From positions 130,237 to 194,236 of the forward strand of contig JABLTJ010000001.1 of NCBI GenBank assembly GCA_013166775.1: a stretch of DNA of 64,000 bases. The letters are read 5' to 3'. The stretch comes from Promethearchaeati archaeon. Its GTDB lineage: Archaea > Asgardarchaeota > Heimdallarchaeia > Heimdallarchaeales > Heimdallarchaeaceae. A model generated the notes under the pieces. The model saw only the letters and a program-made list of their open reading frames with translations, was not told the origin of the DNA and searched no databases. The position numbers and the translations under genes are program-made. How positions within the stretch are numbered: position 1 is the stretch's first letter; every line of letters begins with the position of its first letter. Shown piece by piece: positions 10,524-35,492 of the stretch.

Positions 10524-11747
10524 ATGAAATTCGCAATCGTAGGCGGTAAAATTTATACCGTAAATAAAGAAGAAAAAGTTATTGAAGAAGGGACTGTCCT
10601 GATTAATAACGGTAAAATTGAAGCTGTAAAGGAAGGGAAAGAAACTCCTGAAGGTTATGAAATAATAGATGCTAGCAATAATTCTGTTTTACCTGGTTTT
10701 ATTGACACTCATACTCATCAAGGGCTTTGGGATGGAACAGTTGGTTGGGCAGGTTTTGATGGAAATGAGATGACTGACCCAAATACTGCACAAGTGAGGA
10801 GTATAGATGCTATTAATCCTGAAACCCCTGCTCTTGAAGAAGCTAGGATTGGAGGTGTAACTACAATTCAGACAGGTCCTGGATCAGGGAATGTCATTGG
10901 TGGAACTAATGTTATTATCAAAACTTGGTGCAAAAGTAAAATCATAGATGATTTAATTGTCAAAGAACCTTCATCTCTTAAGTCTGCTCTTGGAGAAAAT
11001 CCAAAAAGGGTTTATGGCACGGATAAGAAAATGCCTTCCACTAGAATGGGTACTGGTGCTGTGTTCCGTCAAGCTTTCATTGATGCACAGAATTATGCTA
11101 AAAAATGGGCAGAGTATGAAAGGAAGAAGAAACAAGCTGAAGAAACAGGTGAAATGGATAAGATGCCAACAGAGCCCGATAGAGATTTAAACAAAGAAAT
11201 AATTCTGAAAGTTTTGAAAAATGAAATTCCCTTAAATATGCATTGCCACCAGGCTAACGATATAGTCACTGCTATTCGTTTTAAAGAGGAATTTGGTTAT
11301 GATCTTATGTTAGTACATGCTACTGAAGGCCATAAAATAGCTGATTACATTGCAAAGAAAGGTATTCCTTGTTCACTCGGACCATCTTTAGTTGGAATGG
11401 AAAAAGTTGAATTAAGAAACATAACTTTTGAAACTCCATTTAAACTCTGGAAAGCAGGAGTAAAAATCTCTATTCAAAGCGATTCTTTTACTCGATTACG
11501 TCATTTTCAAATACTCCCATGTATGGCTGTAAAAGACGGATTACCAGTTAATGAAGCTCTAAAAGCAATTACCATTAATGCAGCTGAGATGATTGGTGTA
11601 GGAGATAGATTAGGTAGTCTTGAAGTTGGAAAGGATGCAGATATTGTAATTTGGACAAAACATCCAATTGATAACTTCTATGCAGAAACCAAAATAGTGT
11701 TCATAAATGGTGAGATATCTTATAAGAAGGAAGCAAAAGATAGCTAA
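10524..11747 (+). CDS. metal-dependent amidohydrolase superfamily protein
   Basis: GFIDTHTHQG (HxH metal motif) after an N-terminal beta-sandwich; C-terminal GSLEVGKDADIVIW is typical of amidohydrolases. Confidence 0.85.
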   Translation: MKFAIVGGKIYTVNKEEKVIEEGTVLINNGKIEAVKEGKETPEGYEIIDASNNSVLPGFIDTHTHQGLWDGTVGWAGFDGNEMTDPNTAQVRSIDAINPETPALEEARIGGVTTIQTGPGSGNVIGGTNVIIKTWCKSKIIDDLIVKEPSSLKSALGENPKRVYGTDKKMPSTRMGTGAVFRQAFIDAQNYAKKWAEYERKKKQAEETGEMDKMPTEPDRDLNKEIILKVLKNEIPLNMHCHQANDIVTAIRFKEEFGYDLMLVHATEGHKIADYIAKKGIPCSLGPSLVGMEKVELRNITFETPFKLWKAGVKISIQSDSFTRLRHFQILPCMAVKDGLPVNEALKAITINAAEMIGVGDRLGSLEVGKDADIVIWTKHPIDNFYAETKIVFINGEISYKKEAKDS

Positions 11748-11774
11748 TTTGAAATTGTATAAAGCTAAAATAAA

Positions 11775-14441: not shown

Positions 14442-15950
14442 CTACTTCGCTTTCTCTTTTTCTTTACTCTTTTCATCTTCTTCTTCTGTGTCCTTTGCTT
14501 CTCCTTTCTCATAATACTCAAGAGATTTTACAATACTCTCGAATACTGGGCTTAGTTTATCTTCATTCAAAACAACTTCGAAAGTTTCTAATTCTCCTCT
14601 ATGATCTAACAAAACATTTTCTTCTTTTAACTTCTCAAATGCATGATAAATAAGATGACCTTTTTGGATGTTAATAGGTGATTCCCTAACATGTAGATGA
14701 ATCTTCTCCCCCACTTTCAAGTGAACAATTATTGGTTTATCTATTTGTATTATTCCACTTTCAACCAAGGCATCTATAATCTGTTTTGCTGTTGTATTTT
14801 CGAAAACATTGGTTCCATCAAGAAACCGATAATTCTTTCTTTCTTCTATTTTTTCTGGTTCTTTCGCTATTATCTCAATTGCTTTAGTAGCTTTGCCATG
14901 GTAATCGCTTAGTTTGCGAATCAATTTATCATATAATTTAGTTCGATCCCCTAAAACAACTCCCAACGCTAAACCATATGATTTGAGATTACAGGCACCT
15001 TCTAAGAGCCATAAGAATTCTTCTGCATTTCTTGTTTGATTCTTTTTTATTTCTTGAGTTAATGTATAGATTGGTCCAATGAGTTTGTGAATATCCGAAA
15101 GAGGGTGATTATTATTTTCCATGAGTAAAGATATCAAACCATCGTTGAGTTTCTTTGTTTCCTTTGAGGAAAGAGAAGCTATTGTCCTCCAATTATCCTC
15201 TTGATCTCTCATGGGGATTCCTAATCGTGAGACAAAGGATGTACAAGCACTTTCATTTCCAGTGAGTCCTGGGAAATAAGGATTTATTGAGTATTTAAGT
15301 GCTAAATGGAGTGGTTGACTCTCTCTTCCAGCGATTCTAGTTCCTTTAGATATGTCCAAGTATTGTTTCTCCCTTCCTTCTTCTAGGATTATCTTATTCA
15401 AACCTATTAATTCCTGATTTTTTGGGTTTACTTGCTTCTTAGATAATCCACCAATTATTGCTAATTCTGCATATTTTGGATAATCATCATCTATGTTTGC
15501 TGAAACAAAATAAACAAGTCCTGCGTTTGAAACCGATCCTAACGGTATTTCCGAATCTTCCAAATTTAAATAAGTTACATCTTCTTTTCTTCTTTCCATT
15601 TCTTTTGAAAAAATAAGTTCTTGATTTACAACAACAATGATGTTTTTTTCTTCTTTAAAAACTAAATCTGGAATATCCTCAATATTATATCCAATGAAGA
15701 AGTAAGCTGAATAATCAAAATTCTTAATCTTTTTTTCTAGATCAGTTACCTCATTCATAAATAAAGAATGAGCTCCAACATCCAAATTGCGTAAACACTT
15801 TAACAAAATACCTGTTGCACATAAATCATCTGGAGTTCCTCTTGCAATAACAACAATATTTCTATTTAGATTTTTTATAATATCTGCGATTTCTTTCGCT
15901 TTATCTTTTAATGATTGATATTTCTCAAAAGGGATGTCTATAGGTGGCAT
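14442..15950 (-). CDS. RecJ/GAN/Cdc45-like DHH-family protein with degenerate catalytic motifs
   Basis: SNAGLVYFVS, AELAIIGGL and LALKYSINPYFPGLTGNESACTSFVSRLGIP match archaeal RecJ/GAN. Motif I reads ARGTPDDL and the DHH position reads VVVNQE. Lies in the conserved uS15-RecJ neighbourhood. Confidence 0.7.
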   Translation of the reverse strand: MPPIDIPFEKYQSLKDKAKEIADIIKNLNRNIVVIARGTPDDLCATGILLKCLRNLDVGAHSLFMNEVTDLEKKIKNFDYSAYFFIGYNIEDIPDLVFKEEKNIIVVVNQELIFSKEMERRKEDVTYLNLEDSEIPLGSVSNAGLVYFVSANIDDDYPKYAELAIIGGLSKKQVNPKNQELIGLNKIILEEGREKQYLDISKGTRIAGRESQPLHLALKYSINPYFPGLTGNESACTSFVSRLGIPMRDQEDNWRTIASLSSKETKKLNDGLISLLMENNNHPLSDIHKLIGPIYTLTQEIKKNQTRNAEEFLWLLEGACNLKSYGLALGVVLGDRTKLYDKLIRKLSDYHGKATKAIEIIAKEPEKIEERKNYRFLDGTNVFENTTAKQIIDALVESGIIQIDKPIIVHLKVGEKIHLHVRESPINIQKGHLIYHAFEKLKEENVLLDHRGELETFEVVLNEDKLSPVFESIVKSLEYYEKGEAKDTEEEDEKSKEKEKAK

Positions 15951-21697: not shown

Positions 21698-23263
21698 TCA
21701 GTTTTTTGAACGTAAAACTGTTAGATTTGTTGTTTTACTATATTTCGTATTACTGCTTGATTCAACTAATTTTCTTAAAGACTCCAAGACTTCTTTATCA
21801 TAAAATTCCAATAGTTTATTATTTTCTGTTTCATTCAAACTTCGTTTATTAACTAAAATTGAAAGATCACCGTTTTGATATCTATGTTTAGGAAAATCTT
21901 CATCTTCTAATTCTTTCTTCGTTTCCTTCGATATCTCTCCCTTTATTATCTCATCTTTGTTCAAATCTAGAACATGATTTGAATTTATAGTTATATACTG
22001 CTTTGCTTGCTTTGGTTGAACAGGATTAACTGATAACTGAATTGTTTTTATTACATTTAGATTTTTATCTAGAAAATAGATCTGTTTATCCTCACCTACA
22101 GTTATCAAGCGATTCTTATAGTAACTTATAGAAAGAGGTGTTTTATTGTGAATTTTCTTTTTAATCACACTCTCTAGATTAATATTATCAAATAATTGAA
22201 TTTCTCCATTATTGAAAGCTATTGCTAGAAAATCAGGTGTAACACAAGAACCTGAGATTGGAATTATTTTTGGTATTGTACTCTTAATTTCTAGTTGATG
22301 ATTAAGCGTTACAATCTCCCCTGATTCCAAGCCAACAATAATTAGTCCATCAGATGATTTTTTTAAAGACAAAGGACGTGATGGGAGTTTTATTGATTCA
22401 GTAGGGGTAGTAGTTTCTAAATCTAAAATAACTACAGTAGAATCTAGGGAAGTTGTAATTAGTTTGTTTTCTAGAAATTCAATGCCTGTTATGTGTTTGC
22501 TATGCGGAAAAAGAGTTTCAAACAATTTTCCATTATCCCTTCTCCAAAGGGATACTAAACCAAATTGATGCCCTAAGATGAAGAAATCACCAGTTATAGT
22601 ACAAACAGTTGAAGGAATTCCATATCTTCTAGCCATGCTAAAGAGAATAGTATGGGGATCTTGGTTCTCAAAATCCTTTATGTATCTACTAGCCTTTTTT
22701 ATAGCTCTAATCAATTTCTTCTTACCTATAGCATTGTTTCTGAATTTGGAAAAATCTTCTGCTTTACGAATAGAAATTAATCCGTATTGATCTGTAATTA
22801 TAATTAGATCACCACAAAGAAAGAATCTCTCCATACCTGGAATTTTTATTCTTTTCTCTTCTACCAATTCACTGTCCTTGAATTTCCATTTTTTAAGCAT
22901 GTGATCTCTACTTGCACTGATTACATAATTTCGCCAAGGTTTTCCTCCAATTATTGCTGAAGCATGAGCTTTTTTAGAACCAATCAACGAGAAATCTTTT
23001 AGAGACCAGAGTTTTAATTCTAAATCATTTGAAGTAGTGATTAGAATCTCTTCATCATTTATTTTCTGAACATCATTAATTGAGAATTTATGAGCATATA
23101 AACATCCTATTTCCTCATTGAGATTAGAATCCCAAATGCAAACTCTCCCATCCTCCCCACCAGTAAAAATGTAATCTTCTACCTCTTCTATTTTAGTAAC
23201 ACCTTTAAGATGTCCAGGTTGATGAAATAGGATTTCAATGTGTTCAGTTTCTCTATTACTCAC
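21698..23263 (-). CDS. WD40 beta-propeller repeat protein with helical C-terminal tail
   Basis: Repeats ending GGEDGRVCIWD, ELKLWSL, DHMLKKWKF, GLVSLWRR, DSTVVILDL, plus further blade-like units. Confidence 0.85.
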   Translation of the reverse strand: MSNRETEHIEILFHQPGHLKGVTKIEEVEDYIFTGGEDGRVCIWDSNLNEEIGCLYAHKFSINDVQKINDEEILITTSNDLELKLWSLKDFSLIGSKKAHASAIIGGKPWRNYVISASRDHMLKKWKFKDSELVEEKRIKIPGMERFFLCGDLIIITDQYGLISIRKAEDFSKFRNNAIGKKKLIRAIKKASRYIKDFENQDPHTILFSMARRYGIPSTVCTITGDFFILGHQFGLVSLWRRDNGKLFETLFPHSKHITGIEFLENKLITTSLDSTVVILDLETTTPTESIKLPSRPLSLKKSSDGLIIVGLESGEIVTLNHQLEIKSTIPKIIPISGSCVTPDFLAIAFNNGEIQLFDNINLESVIKKKIHNKTPLSISYYKNRLITVGEDKQIYFLDKNLNVIKTIQLSVNPVQPKQAKQYITINSNHVLDLNKDEIIKGEISKETKKELEDEDFPKHRYQNGDLSILVNKRSLNETENNKLLEFYDKEVLESLRKLVESSSNTKYSKTTNLTVLRSKN

Positions 23264-32439: not shown

Positions 32440-32547
32440 GAACAAATGTTAATATAAAAATCTAGAGTTGTTGAATTTAGTTATACTAGAAAAGGAATCT
32501 ATAAATAGAACGCTGTGAAATACTTACAAGAAAGGTGTTAGGATATC

Positions 32548-33204
32548 ATGATAGTTCCAGATAGCGTCTTAGCAAAAGAATATAGTCTTGTGATGGAAAG
32601 AGCTTATGCATTTGAACCTATCGCAGGGGATTTAACTAAATGGAGAGGTTTTGTTCCCGCAATTTCAGATGAAGGTGAAATTTTAGTAGAAATTGAAATC
32701 TATCTAACAGATTCATTTCCAGAAACTCCACCACAAGTGAAAATTATTACCCCTATCACACATCCAAATTTAACACATGATAATTTTTTAGAAATGAGAA
32801 TGCTTGCTAGATGGAGATCAAGTTATCACCTTTTTCAAGTGATTGTGGAAACAATTAGGCTATTTTCGAAAGTTCCTGCAAAAATGATTAAGACAGACGC
32901 AGAAACGATTGATCCTCAGAATCAACTTACACCCTTGACAAAACAAAAGGAACAATTGACAATTATTCTCGAAGAAAGGAAGAGAGAATTAAACGAAATA
33001 TCATCAAAAAAACCAAGCCAAGTAAGCAACAAAATATTACAACAAGAGAAACTAAAACATATTGACGATGAAATACTGAATGTAGAAAGTGAAATCTTTG
33101 CAATAGAACAACAATTTGAAGATTATGAAATTTCTAGTATAGAATTCGCTAAGAAATTCTATACTCTTAAGAAAAGATTATTTCTTTTAGAAGCTAAATC
33201 ATAG
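32548..33204 (+). CDS. UEV (inactive E2 variant) + coiled coil + steadiness-box-like C-terminus; Vps23/TSG101-like ESCRT-I candidate
   Basis: UBC-fold signature LTKWRGFV...FPETPPQVKIITPITHPNL (HPN at 32761-32769), with Glu82 at the position of the catalytic Cys. Residues ~115-190 are heptad-rich. The C-terminal EISSIEFAKKFYTLKKRLFLLEA resembles TSG101 VIDLDVFLKHVRLLSRKQFQLRA. Confidence 0.7.
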   Translation: MIVPDSVLAKEYSLVMERAYAFEPIAGDLTKWRGFVPAISDEGEILVEIEIYLTDSFPETPPQVKIITPITHPNLTHDNFLEMRMLARWRSSYHLFQVIVETIRLFSKVPAKMIKTDAETIDPQNQLTPLTKQKEQLTIILEERKRELNEISSKKPSQVSNKILQQEKLKHIDDEILNVESEIFAIEQQFEDYEISSIEFAKKFYTLKKRLFLLEAKS

Positions 33205-33210
33205 TTCGAT

Positions 33211-33504
33211 TCATGCAGCACTACTTTTTTCGCTTTTGGTTTTCTTTTCCGTTTTCATTAGTCTCTTAGTAATGATATACCAAACAAATAACCAAATCCC
33301 TACAAACAACAAACCCAATCCTACTTTAATAGCAGCAAGTAAGAAATTTATACCTGGTTTGGTGGGAACTTCAGGAATAATAACAATAAACGCATTAATA
33401 ATAAAACAGATTCCTATAAATGAAGCAAATACAAATGCTTCAAGTCCAATGACTTTTGATATTCTACTTACGATTTTATTATATCTCATTATATCACCAA
33501 CCAT
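33211..33504 (-). CDS. small membrane protein (2-3 TM helices)
   Basis: 97 aa, hydrophobic core, Lys-rich tail. Overlaps the 3' end of the upstream glycosyltransferase gene. Confidence 0.5.
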   Translation of the reverse strand: MVGDIMRYNKIVSRISKVIGLEAFVFASFIGICFIINAFIVIIPEVPTKPGINFLLAAIKVGLGLLFVGIWLFVWYIITKRLMKTEKKTKSEKSSAA

Positions 33505-34565: not shown

Positions 34566-35423
34566 TTAAAGATCTTCTAGTTTCTTCAAAGCTTTAAGAA
34601 GTTCTGCTTTATCACCGCTAACCGCTTCACCAAAAATCTCCGCTGATTTTCCTTCTTCTGGTACTGTGGGTTCTTCTTCAGTCTTAAGAACGGAAGGTTG
34701 AATTTCTGCAGCATCTGTGGTTACTTCTTTCTTTGGAGGCATAGGTATGCTTCCACTTACCTGTTTAGAAATGGGGCTTACGTCTCTTTCAACCGCTTCT
34801 GTGACTTGTGTTGCAGGTTTAGGCGCAGGTGGTGGTGGTGCTGGGACTTCAGTAGGGGTGACAGTAGGTGCAACCTTAGGAAGTTCTACTTCCTCAATTT
34901 TCTGTGTTGGAGGTGCTGAAGGAATTTCTGCGCTTGGAACTGGAATAGATTCAGGTATAGGTGGTACGGGAATTGATGTTATTTCCTTCTCAGGAGCTTC
35001 TGTAGGAATTTCAAATTCAGCAACTGCTTCTGCTTCTTCGATTGCTGGAACAGGTTCCGGTGCTACCGACGGAGCTTCTGCAGCTATATCCTTTATTGCT
35101 TGAACATCTGTAGGTTCCACTACAGTTTCATCCTGAACACTTTTTGTTGCTTCTATTAGCAGTATTCGTTCATTTAAGCTATCCATTCTTTTTGTTAATT
35201 GTTCTATTTTGTTAACTAAACCTGTTGCATCTGCTGGTACAGCTTGAGTAGATGTACTTTGTCCAGCTTGAGCTTCTAGTATGTCCAATCTTTCCTTTAA
35301 TGATACTACGACATTATCGTAATCTTTGAAACGATCTTGAACTGCTGAAACAATGCTTTCAACCATGTTCTTTACCATGTTAATGGATCCAACAAGTGAT
35401 TTGAATTCATCTTTCTTTGACAT
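34566..35423 (-). CDS. coiled-coil N-terminus + long Pro/Glu/Ala/Val-rich low-complexity region; contains a PSAP motif
   Basis: ATG at 35423 (MSKKDEF...). Helical N-terminal 110 aa. The low-complexity segment is encoded by ~34659-35078. PSAP is encoded at 34911-34922. The C-terminal amphipathic helix reads DKAELLKALKKLEDL. Confidence 0.7.
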   Translation of the reverse strand: MSKKDEFKSLVGSINMVKNMVESIVSAVQDRFKDYDNVVVSLKERLDILEAQAGQSTSTQAVPADATGLVNKIEQLTKRMDSLNERILLIEATKSVQDETVVEPTDVQAIKDIAAEAPSVAPEPVPAIEEAEAVAEFEIPTEAPEKEITSIPVPPIPESIPVPSAEIPSAPPTQKIEEVELPKVAPTVTPTEVPAPPPPAPKPATQVTEAVERDVSPISKQVSGSIPMPPKKEVTTDAAEIQPSVLKTEEEPTVPEEGKSAEIFGEAVSGDKAELLKALKKLEDL

Positions 35424-35492
35424 CTTGAATCTACACCTTACTATTATAATATGAGAATATAAAATCATTGCTAAAGGCTAGAAAGCGATTTC

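Follow-up and report, generated by a model that had tools for sequence, protein, structure and literature searches.

A short, cysteine-free UEV protein of Heimdallarchaeaceae belongs to a paralog clade of the Asgard UEV-Vps23 family

[quoted passage not shown] On its plus strand, at 32548-33204, lies a complete gene, stop codon counted, for a 218-residue protein made of a ubiquitin E2 variant (UEV) domain, a helical stalk and a terminal hairpin. Within the Asgard UEV-Vps23 (ESCRT-I) family this gene falls in a clade of short paralogs, and sequence comparison indicates that its product is homologous over the full length to Asgard Vps23-family proteins. The protein is nevertheless a second copy and not the main ESCRT-I subunit of the lineage, because related genomes encode a cluster-borne UEV-Vps23-Vps28 fusion elsewhere. 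A first-pass annotation, made from the letters alone, had called it a Vps23/TSG101 homolog; the homology to the Asgard Vps23 family holds, but the protein is not the lineage's Vps23/TSG101 ortholog. The paralog group was already known, and what we add is the recognition of a Vps23-type stalk and a probable steadiness box at its C-terminus. We put at roughly even the chance that the window protein serves as a ubiquitin-binding, hairpin-assembling accessory subunit of ESCRT-I type. ESCRT-I, with its three-hairpin headpiece (Vps23, Vps28 and Vps37), is a eukaryotic signature system that has been traced to Asgard archaea.

A profile search of 1.84 billion representative sequences returned 514 relatives, of which 74 had E values of 1e-10 or lower. 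Clustering and length divide the full-length relatives into three groups. Group A, to which the window protein belongs, comprises proteins of 205-227 amino acids that end right after the hairpin; group B, of 236-307 amino acids, is the canonical Asgard UEV-Vps23 (asCOG005829/007313, with P0050 and P0055 as examples); and the third, of 388-473 amino acids, consists of fusions running on into Vps28. Group A stands apart from canonical group B in the clustering. A metagenome scan for the clade yielded three loci only, a thin sampling of its taxonomic breadth.

Several comparisons tie group A to the other two groups. When the C-terminal 100 residues of group A were aligned by hhalign with the C-termini of group B, 94 columns matched with stalk and hairpin in register (probability 98.5%, E 2.5e-15), and the group B hidden Markov model (HMM) gives the complete window protein 144.5 bits. 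BLASTP aligns residues 2-208 of the window protein with residues 4-245 of the UEV-Vps23-Vps28 fusion of locus L010 (9e-32, 31% identity), and tblastn between the same two gives 3.7e-27. Pfam Vps23_core is recognized in group B, where scores of 31.8, 28.6 and 27.5 bits put three members over the gathering threshold and the group consensus reaches 31.5 bits, and in two of the three fusions scanned (P0060 and the L010 fusion), where Pfam VPS28 is matched as well. The part of the L010 fusion aligned by BLASTP includes its Vps23_core-matching segment, residues 206-247. Homology to group B, together with an alignment that spans this segment, argues that the stalk plus hairpin of the window protein is a diverged Vps23-type domain. 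The canonical proteins have the same domain order, a homologous stalk and hairpin, and, like the window protein, a hairpin whose first arm is acidic and whose second is basic, a feature described for them by Lu et al. (bioRxiv 10.1101/2023.07.25.550441). The scores of group B for Pfam Vps23_core and UEV lie near or above threshold, whereas the window clade has no Vps23_core match, and the second hairpin helix of group B is ~10 residues longer.

That the window protein is a second copy is apparent from genomes in which both forms occur. When genomes were scanned with the fusion family, 32 proved to have the fusion, among them Heimdallarchaeota AB_125 and the closed Candidatus (Ca.) Heimdallarchaeum genomes. 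The 701-kb contig JAUVXV010000001.1 carries an ortholog of the window protein (65% identity) at ~211 kb, adjoining ABCE1, and, at ~329 kb and thus 118 kb from the ortholog, genes for ubiquitin, a ThiF-type E1, UEV-SB-Vps28 (SB, steadiness box), a 101-amino-acid product, EAP30/Vps22, Vps25, Vps4 and two Snf7 proteins. Both the window-type protein and the fusion are likewise present in the metagenome-assembled genome (MAG) YT1_002, on two contigs. The Heimdall fusion (HeimAB125_14070 / OLS31938.1; here positions 9980-11383 of L010, and P0060) resembles the window-type protein found within the same genomes in having a Cys-less ubiquitin-conjugating (UBC) fold, an HPN motif, a stalk and a steadiness-box-type hairpin. 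It differs in its longer linker and stalk and in continuing into a full Vps28 domain, whereas the window protein terminates two to three residues past the hairpin. The fusion sits in a ubiquitin-E1-ESCRT-II-Vps4-ESCRT-III cluster and the window gene in a housekeeping region. The AB_125 fusion has been found to bind ubiquitin and ESCRT-II and to dimerize (Hatano et al., PMC9192718).

Two further observations concern the fusion and its surroundings. Loci L030, L031, L033 and L034, whose MAG labels are Borrarchaeum, Borrarchaeota, Sifarchaeum and 'Promethearchaeota', also encode full-length UEV-steadiness-box-Vps28 fusions, at 34-41% identity and with residues 4-472 of the query matched; the distribution is thus wider than that given by Lu et al., who stated the fusion for certain Heimdallarchaeia only (bioRxiv 10.1101/2023.07.25.550441). 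Within the L010 ESCRT cluster, a 101-amino-acid open reading frame (11451-11756, plus strand) with no Pfam match lies between the fusion and Vps22 and might encode a free-standing small ESCRT-I/II accessory.

The clade has appeared in earlier work in two forms. Hatano et al. (PMC9192718) listed a second Cys-less E2-like protein, HeimAB125_11700, whose published fragment 67-92 fits the window family almost exactly. Lu et al. (2023, bioRxiv 10.1101/2023.07.25.550441) described UEV_X (e.g., OLS29001.1), in which a UEV precedes a short stretch of helix (residues 170-210) that weakly resembles GvpG (PF05120); this group occurs in Heimdall-, Gerd- and Kariarchaeia, outside ubiquitin clusters. The window clade matches both, UEV_X by its description: a length of ~210-220 amino acids (218 in the window protein), occurrence in Heimdallarchaeia and absence of ubiquitin clustering are common to the two, and the weak GvpG matches were reproduced (0.14 on the hairpin consensus, 0.18-0.8 on clade members). 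Unlike the present analysis, neither paper reads the C-terminus as a stalk and steadiness box, it having been trimmed from the model in the one and taken as GvpG-like in the other.

The N-terminal domain (residues 1-110; 32548-32877) has the UBC fold that the first-pass annotation recognized from landmarks such as LTKWRGFV (residues 29-36) and FPETPPQVKIITPITHPNL (residues 57-75). Pfam UQ_con (PF00179) matches residues 47-108 with 40.9 bits (E 2e-10), above its curated cutoff of 27, and PDB profile matches to Rad6, Mms2 and Ubc13 stand at ~1e-8. In the AlphaFold2 model the UBC core consists of a helix at 5-18, four strands and a crossover helix at 95-108; the two C-terminal helices of E2 enzymes are absent. 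The HPN motif, His72-Pro73-Asn74 (32761-32769), is invariant in the close-family alignment. Ten residues past His72, HMMER aligns Glu82 (codon 32791-32793) with the catalytic position of Ubc13 and Rad6, the Ubc13 PDB entry concerned being the C87E mutant. The whole protein contains no cysteine, and among 27 aligned homologues the catalytic column holds E, D, A or S and Cys in none. The protein is therefore a UEV in the broad sense, a UBC fold that cannot carry a thioester, the catalytic Cys being replaced by Glu and no other Cys being present, as the annotation of a dead E2 variant had it.

A UEV of TSG101 type was not borne out. The Pfam UEV profile (PF05743, TSG101-type) gives 15.3 bits (E 0.019) for the window protein and 21.6 bits for the family consensus, both under the gathering score of 27. 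No TSG101 chain occurs in the top 60 of the PDB sequence search or in the Foldseek top 50 for the whole model, which retrieved E2s and Mms2 only (~1e-5 over ~110 residues). The domain looks nearer to ordinary E2s and Mms2 than to the TSG101 UEV. In distant members of the short clade (in the alignment, and at L040 4393-5016 and L041 1230-1859) the HPN motif is lost, with HPIAD, STPITD or SHLGAD as examples, so that this remnant of an E2-like active site is conserved only in the Heimdallarchaeaceae subfamily.

Beyond the UBC domain, the structure prediction agrees with the helical stalk and steadiness-box-type hairpin that had been annotated. The full AlphaFold2 model, built on the family alignment (predicted local distance difference test [pLDDT] score 82), places helices at residues 123-153, 161-191 and 197-217, of which the last two form the hairpin at pLDDT ~90-95; the helical stalk measures ~30 + 30 residues. 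A low-confidence linker (residues 111-122; 32878-32913; pLDDT <50 at 117-121) runs into a conserved D122/P123..P129 stretch. The first stalk helix (residues 123-153; 32914-33006) aligns by hhalign onto the stalk of canonical Asgard UEV-Vps23. The second long helix (residues 161-191; 33028-33120) is in hhalign register with the group B hairpin and aligns with the Vps23_core-matching segment of the L010 fusion, and its acidic C-terminal half, DDEILNVESEIFAIEQQFED, forms the first arm of the steadiness-box-like hairpin. The second arm (residues 197-217; 33136-33198), supported by AlphaFold2 and Foldseek, is the basic sequence IEFAKKFYTLKKRLFLLEAK, in which E199, F200, K209, R210 and L214 are invariant.

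The Foldseek search with the whole model was dominated by E2 matches and uninformative on the C-terminus, and residues 112-218 were therefore modeled alone (pLDDT 82; 94-95 in the hairpin) and compared with 350,542 PDB chains. The two best-ranked chains were 2f6m_C and 2f66_A, with target-normalized template modeling scores of 0.80 and 0.76 and root mean square deviations of 0.6 and 0.9 Å over 52 columns when superposed on the hairpin model. The 65-residue sequence common to 2f66 and 2f6m was checked and is the C-terminus of yeast Vps23 (STP22), and other ESCRT-I chains (6vme, 2p22 and 2f66) lie within the top 31. The first-pass annotation had looked to Foldseek of an AlphaFold model for a match to the TSG101 UEV and the Vps23 core; the C-terminal model ranked yeast Vps23 first, and the whole model gave E2s and Mms2. 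We take the ranking as supportive of a steadiness-box likeness in the predicted hairpin and not as proof of it.

For comparison with TSG101, the sequence used for the human protein was checked against PDB 1kpp and 6vme_B, and that of VPS37B against PDB chains as well. Eukaryotic profiles were built from database homologues (48 sequences for TSG101), and reversed-target controls gave hhalign E values of at least 0.06 for all queries. The last residues of the window protein had first been lined up with the TSG101 C-terminus. Without gaps, this line-up holds 7 identities in 23 positions (BLOSUM62 score 18), and in 28% of trials a shuffled sequence, tried at every offset, attains the highest score observed (20, at a different offset), which is not beyond chance. 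The clade C-terminus against single TSG101 gives an hhalign E of 0.19, and the group A hairpin against the TSG101 profile 0.14-0.31, which is noise. The group B C-terminus, however, matches the TSG101 profile at 2.3e-6 with the hairpin in register, and chaining group A to group B to TSG101 gives exactly the register of the original line-up. The register thus stands, while the direct similarity does not. Judged from these alignments, the C-terminal likeness to TSG101 is real yet demonstrable only via intermediate sequences. As independent evidence, a direct sequence link between this C-terminus and eukaryotic ESCRT-I was dropped, the HMMER, hhalign and shuffle tests all being insignificant. TSG101/Vps23 and the window protein share an overall architecture of UEV, stalk and steadiness-box-like hairpin, and the hairpin model superposes closely on the yeast Vps23 C-terminus. 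Unlike TSG101, the window protein has neither a proline-rich region nor a PTAP motif, and its UEV domain is closer to ordinary E2s.

An accessory ESCRT-I-type subunit of this kind would use its UEV domain for noncovalent binding of ubiquitin or ubiquitylated cargo, as shown for the paralogous Heimdall fusion, and its stalk and hairpin to assemble with further proteins of steadiness-box type. Of possible partners, the cluster-encoded UEV-Vps23-Vps28 fusion would be the most economical. Two hairpins, those of Vps23 and Vps28, would come from one fusion chain and a third from a single copy of the window protein, and the result would be a three-hairpin headpiece with two UEVs, resembling both the eukaryotic Vps23:Vps37:Vps28 arrangement and the Vps23(2):Vps28(1) arrangement of Odinarchaeota, whose Vps23:Vps28 complex is 2:1 (PMC9192718). 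Expression would come from a housekeeping locus and not from the ESCRT operon. Asgards are considered to lack Vps37, and the split between Vps23 and Vps37 is regarded as a eukaryotic innovation (PMC9192718). A C-terminus that is a steadiness-box-type module would make the window protein a concrete candidate for the missing third ESCRT-I subunit.

A number of observations weigh against this assignment. Vps23_core (PF09454) is matched by neither the window protein, nor the close-family consensus, nor any of 10 clade members, and Mod_r is unmatched by the window protein and the close-family consensus. HMMER searches of all PDB sequences with the clade C-terminal profile and consensus retrieved generic coiled coils only. 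The Foldseek E value for the hairpin, 0.85, is not significant, and short helical hairpins are a common fold. In none of the eight contexts examined does the gene lie beside ESCRT or ubiquitin genes. The fusion dimerizes alone (Hatano et al., PMC9192718), so that no third subunit is needed. The retained HPN motif and the LEMRMLARW block, invariant in the family, might have some role apart from ubiquitin binding of the TSG101 kind; the binding of ubiquitin and of partners by the window protein is a prediction from its sequence relationships.

Within ESCRT-I, the window protein could instead be an archaeal counterpart of Vps37, with a Vps23/Vps37-type duplication already present in Heimdallarchaeia and the window copy in the Vps37 position of headpiece and stalk, a possibility that we consider unlikely though not remote. 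What weak eukaryotic affinity the protein has leans toward Vps37/Mod(r) more than toward Vps23_core. The consensus of the distant clade reaches Pfam Mod_r (PF07200) at 1.5e-6 (28.7 bits, profile positions 32-141 of 146), and a hairpin-only consensus reaches positions 98-141 at 0.0025, although every Mod_r score is below the Pfam gathering score of 30.1 and none comes from the window protein or its close family. Weak Mod_r matches occur in 5 of the 10 individual clade members, none of which matches Vps23_core; neither clade consensus matches Vps23_core, and the group B consensus shows the reverse pattern. By hhalign, the clade aligns with a VPS37B profile at 4.5e-5 (probability 69%), the hairpin being in register, where the TSG101 hairpin and the controls score at noise level, but the VPS37B profile is of very low diversity (effective sequence number, Neff, 1.8) and is matched better by the group B hairpin (9.4e-6) than by the group A hairpin (0.005). 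The top Foldseek matches are Vps23 and, by chain length, Vps28, with no Vps37 chain recognized among them, and the hairpins of Vps23, Vps28 and Vps37 are all homologous, so any single assignment is fragile. The stoichiometry would suit a Vps37 role, the fusion supplying two hairpins and the window protein the third, and human VPS37A has a UEV-like domain ahead of its Mod(r) domain. Eukaryotic Vps37 (VPS37B in 6VME) resembles the window protein in its stalk helix, its steadiness-box-like hairpin and weak profile matches above the controls, and the limit of the resemblance is that those matches all fall under curated thresholds. If this role were true, the Vps23/Vps37 split would predate eukaryotes or be paralleled in their closest archaeal relatives, and Heimdallarchaeia would hold two differentiated UEV-stalk-hairpin subunits, one fused to Vps28 and one short and unlinked.

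Other explanations for the window protein depart further from an accessory ESCRT-I subunit or assign it the central place. Function outside ESCRT, as a self-associating receptor for ubiquitin or a ubiquitin-like protein that perhaps acts with ABCE1 (ribosome recycling) or with the neighboring GT4 glycosyltransferase, would agree with a gene order of ABCE1, UEV, membrane protein and GT4 that is kept in close orthologs and with a location that is never in an ESCRT cluster; if the protein acted by itself, archaea would have in it a ubiquitin receptor independent of ESCRT. We find such a function distinctly unlikely, as distant clade members lie in other surroundings and the stalk plus hairpin is specifically ESCRT-I-like. 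It is improbable that the protein is a bona fide Vps23/TSG101 ortholog and the main ubiquitin-recognizing ESCRT-I subunit of the lineage. The three-part architecture, the homology to the Asgard Vps23 family and a hairpin whose best fold match is yeast Vps23 would all be expected of such a subunit, but the window protein falls in a separate clade, lacks a Vps23_core match and is unlinked to ESCRT genes, and related genomes also carry, in the ubiquitin-ESCRT cluster, the fusion that has been experimentally shown to bind ubiquitin and ESCRT-II (PMC9192718). Very little speaks for a cofactor of Mms2/Uev1 type that would assemble ubiquitin chains as the partner of an active Ubc13-like E2. Mms2, UEV1 and UEV2 are among the best PDB sequence matches (~1e-8) and HPN is retained, but canonical E2s score equally well, and the matched Mms2 and UEV1/UEV2 chains are single-domain proteins of ~140-170 residues without stalk or hairpin. 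A stalk and hairpin of 108 residues are additional in the window protein, which aligns over its whole length with ESCRT-I-type proteins, on which grounds we rejected the Mms2-like explanation. An active E2 ubiquitin-conjugating enzyme, suggested by the UQ_con match and by some database names, is refuted by the sequence, a Cys-less protein from a family whose catalytic column is never Cys; the names "ubiquitin-conjugating enzyme E2" and "ubiquitin-protein ligase" are wrong for it.

The gene itself is well delimited. The translation of 32548-33204 is exactly the sequence first quoted, and the window protein has 35 close homologues, nearly all of 218-223 amino acids, of which the named ones are from Heimdallarchaeaceae or Heimdallarchaeota. 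The start codon is supported by the conservation of the N-terminus across these homologues. The strand opposite 32548-33204 has many stops and no reading frame, and the G+C content of the window is ~31-35%. ABCE1 and the UEV gene diverge from a spacer of 102 bp (32446-32547), which holds TATAAATA (32500-32507, plus strand), read from the sequence as a possible archaeal TATA box ~40 nucleotides 5' of the ATG. A GGTG lies 12 nucleotides ahead of the same ATG, and the two elements are a plausible promoter and ribosome-binding site.

With regard to genomic context, the earlier statement that the gene lies outside any ESCRT cluster and that the window contains no Vps4 or ESCRT-III gene was upheld. 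A tblastn search of the window with the ESCRT and ubiquitin proteins of a related genome, and UEV/E2-type family HMMs run on its six-frame translation, each had this gene as the only match. Pfam on ~30 neighboring open reading frames found housekeeping genes only and no ESCRT or ubiquitin gene; the housekeeping genes of the window include those for ribosomal proteins, TFB, IleRS, ABCE1, TrmO, SBDS, exosome subunits and RFC, among others. All close orthologs examined, to as low as 52% identity, show the order ABCE1 (minus strand), UEV (plus), small membrane protein (minus) and GT4 (minus). L038 (47% identity) retains ABCE1, UEV and GT4, and the small membrane-protein gene was not called there. 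Two distant group A genes adjoin the genes for RNA polymerase A'' and ribosomal protein S12, from which it follows that adjacency to ABCE1 is lineage synteny and not functional evidence. A functional link to ABCE1 or GT4 by way of conserved neighbors was rejected for this reason.

Several neighboring genes merit description. The gene convergent with the UEV gene, 6 nucleotides past its stop (33211-33504, minus strand), encodes a 97-amino-acid hydrophobic protein, probably a membrane protein, and overlaps the GT4 start by 16 nucleotides; a gene of 84-111 amino acids without a Pfam match is conserved at this place in related loci. At 34566-35468 (minus strand) lies a gene for a 300-amino-acid protein, likewise without a Pfam match, with a coiled-coil N-terminus followed by a long low-complexity region rich in Pro, Glu, Ala and Val. 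The position after GT4 in the covered orthologous loci is taken by an unannotated gene of 278-320 amino acids, and in L038 by ribosomal-protein genes instead. L038 also encodes, ~6.3 kb downstream of its UEV gene (14980-15447, plus strand), a 155-amino-acid UQ_con protein that is possibly an active E2 and has no counterpart in the window. Finally, among ribosomal and RNase P genes of the window, positions 21698-23263 (minus strand) encode a 521-amino-acid WD40 beta-propeller with many matches, to eukaryote-type propeller families.

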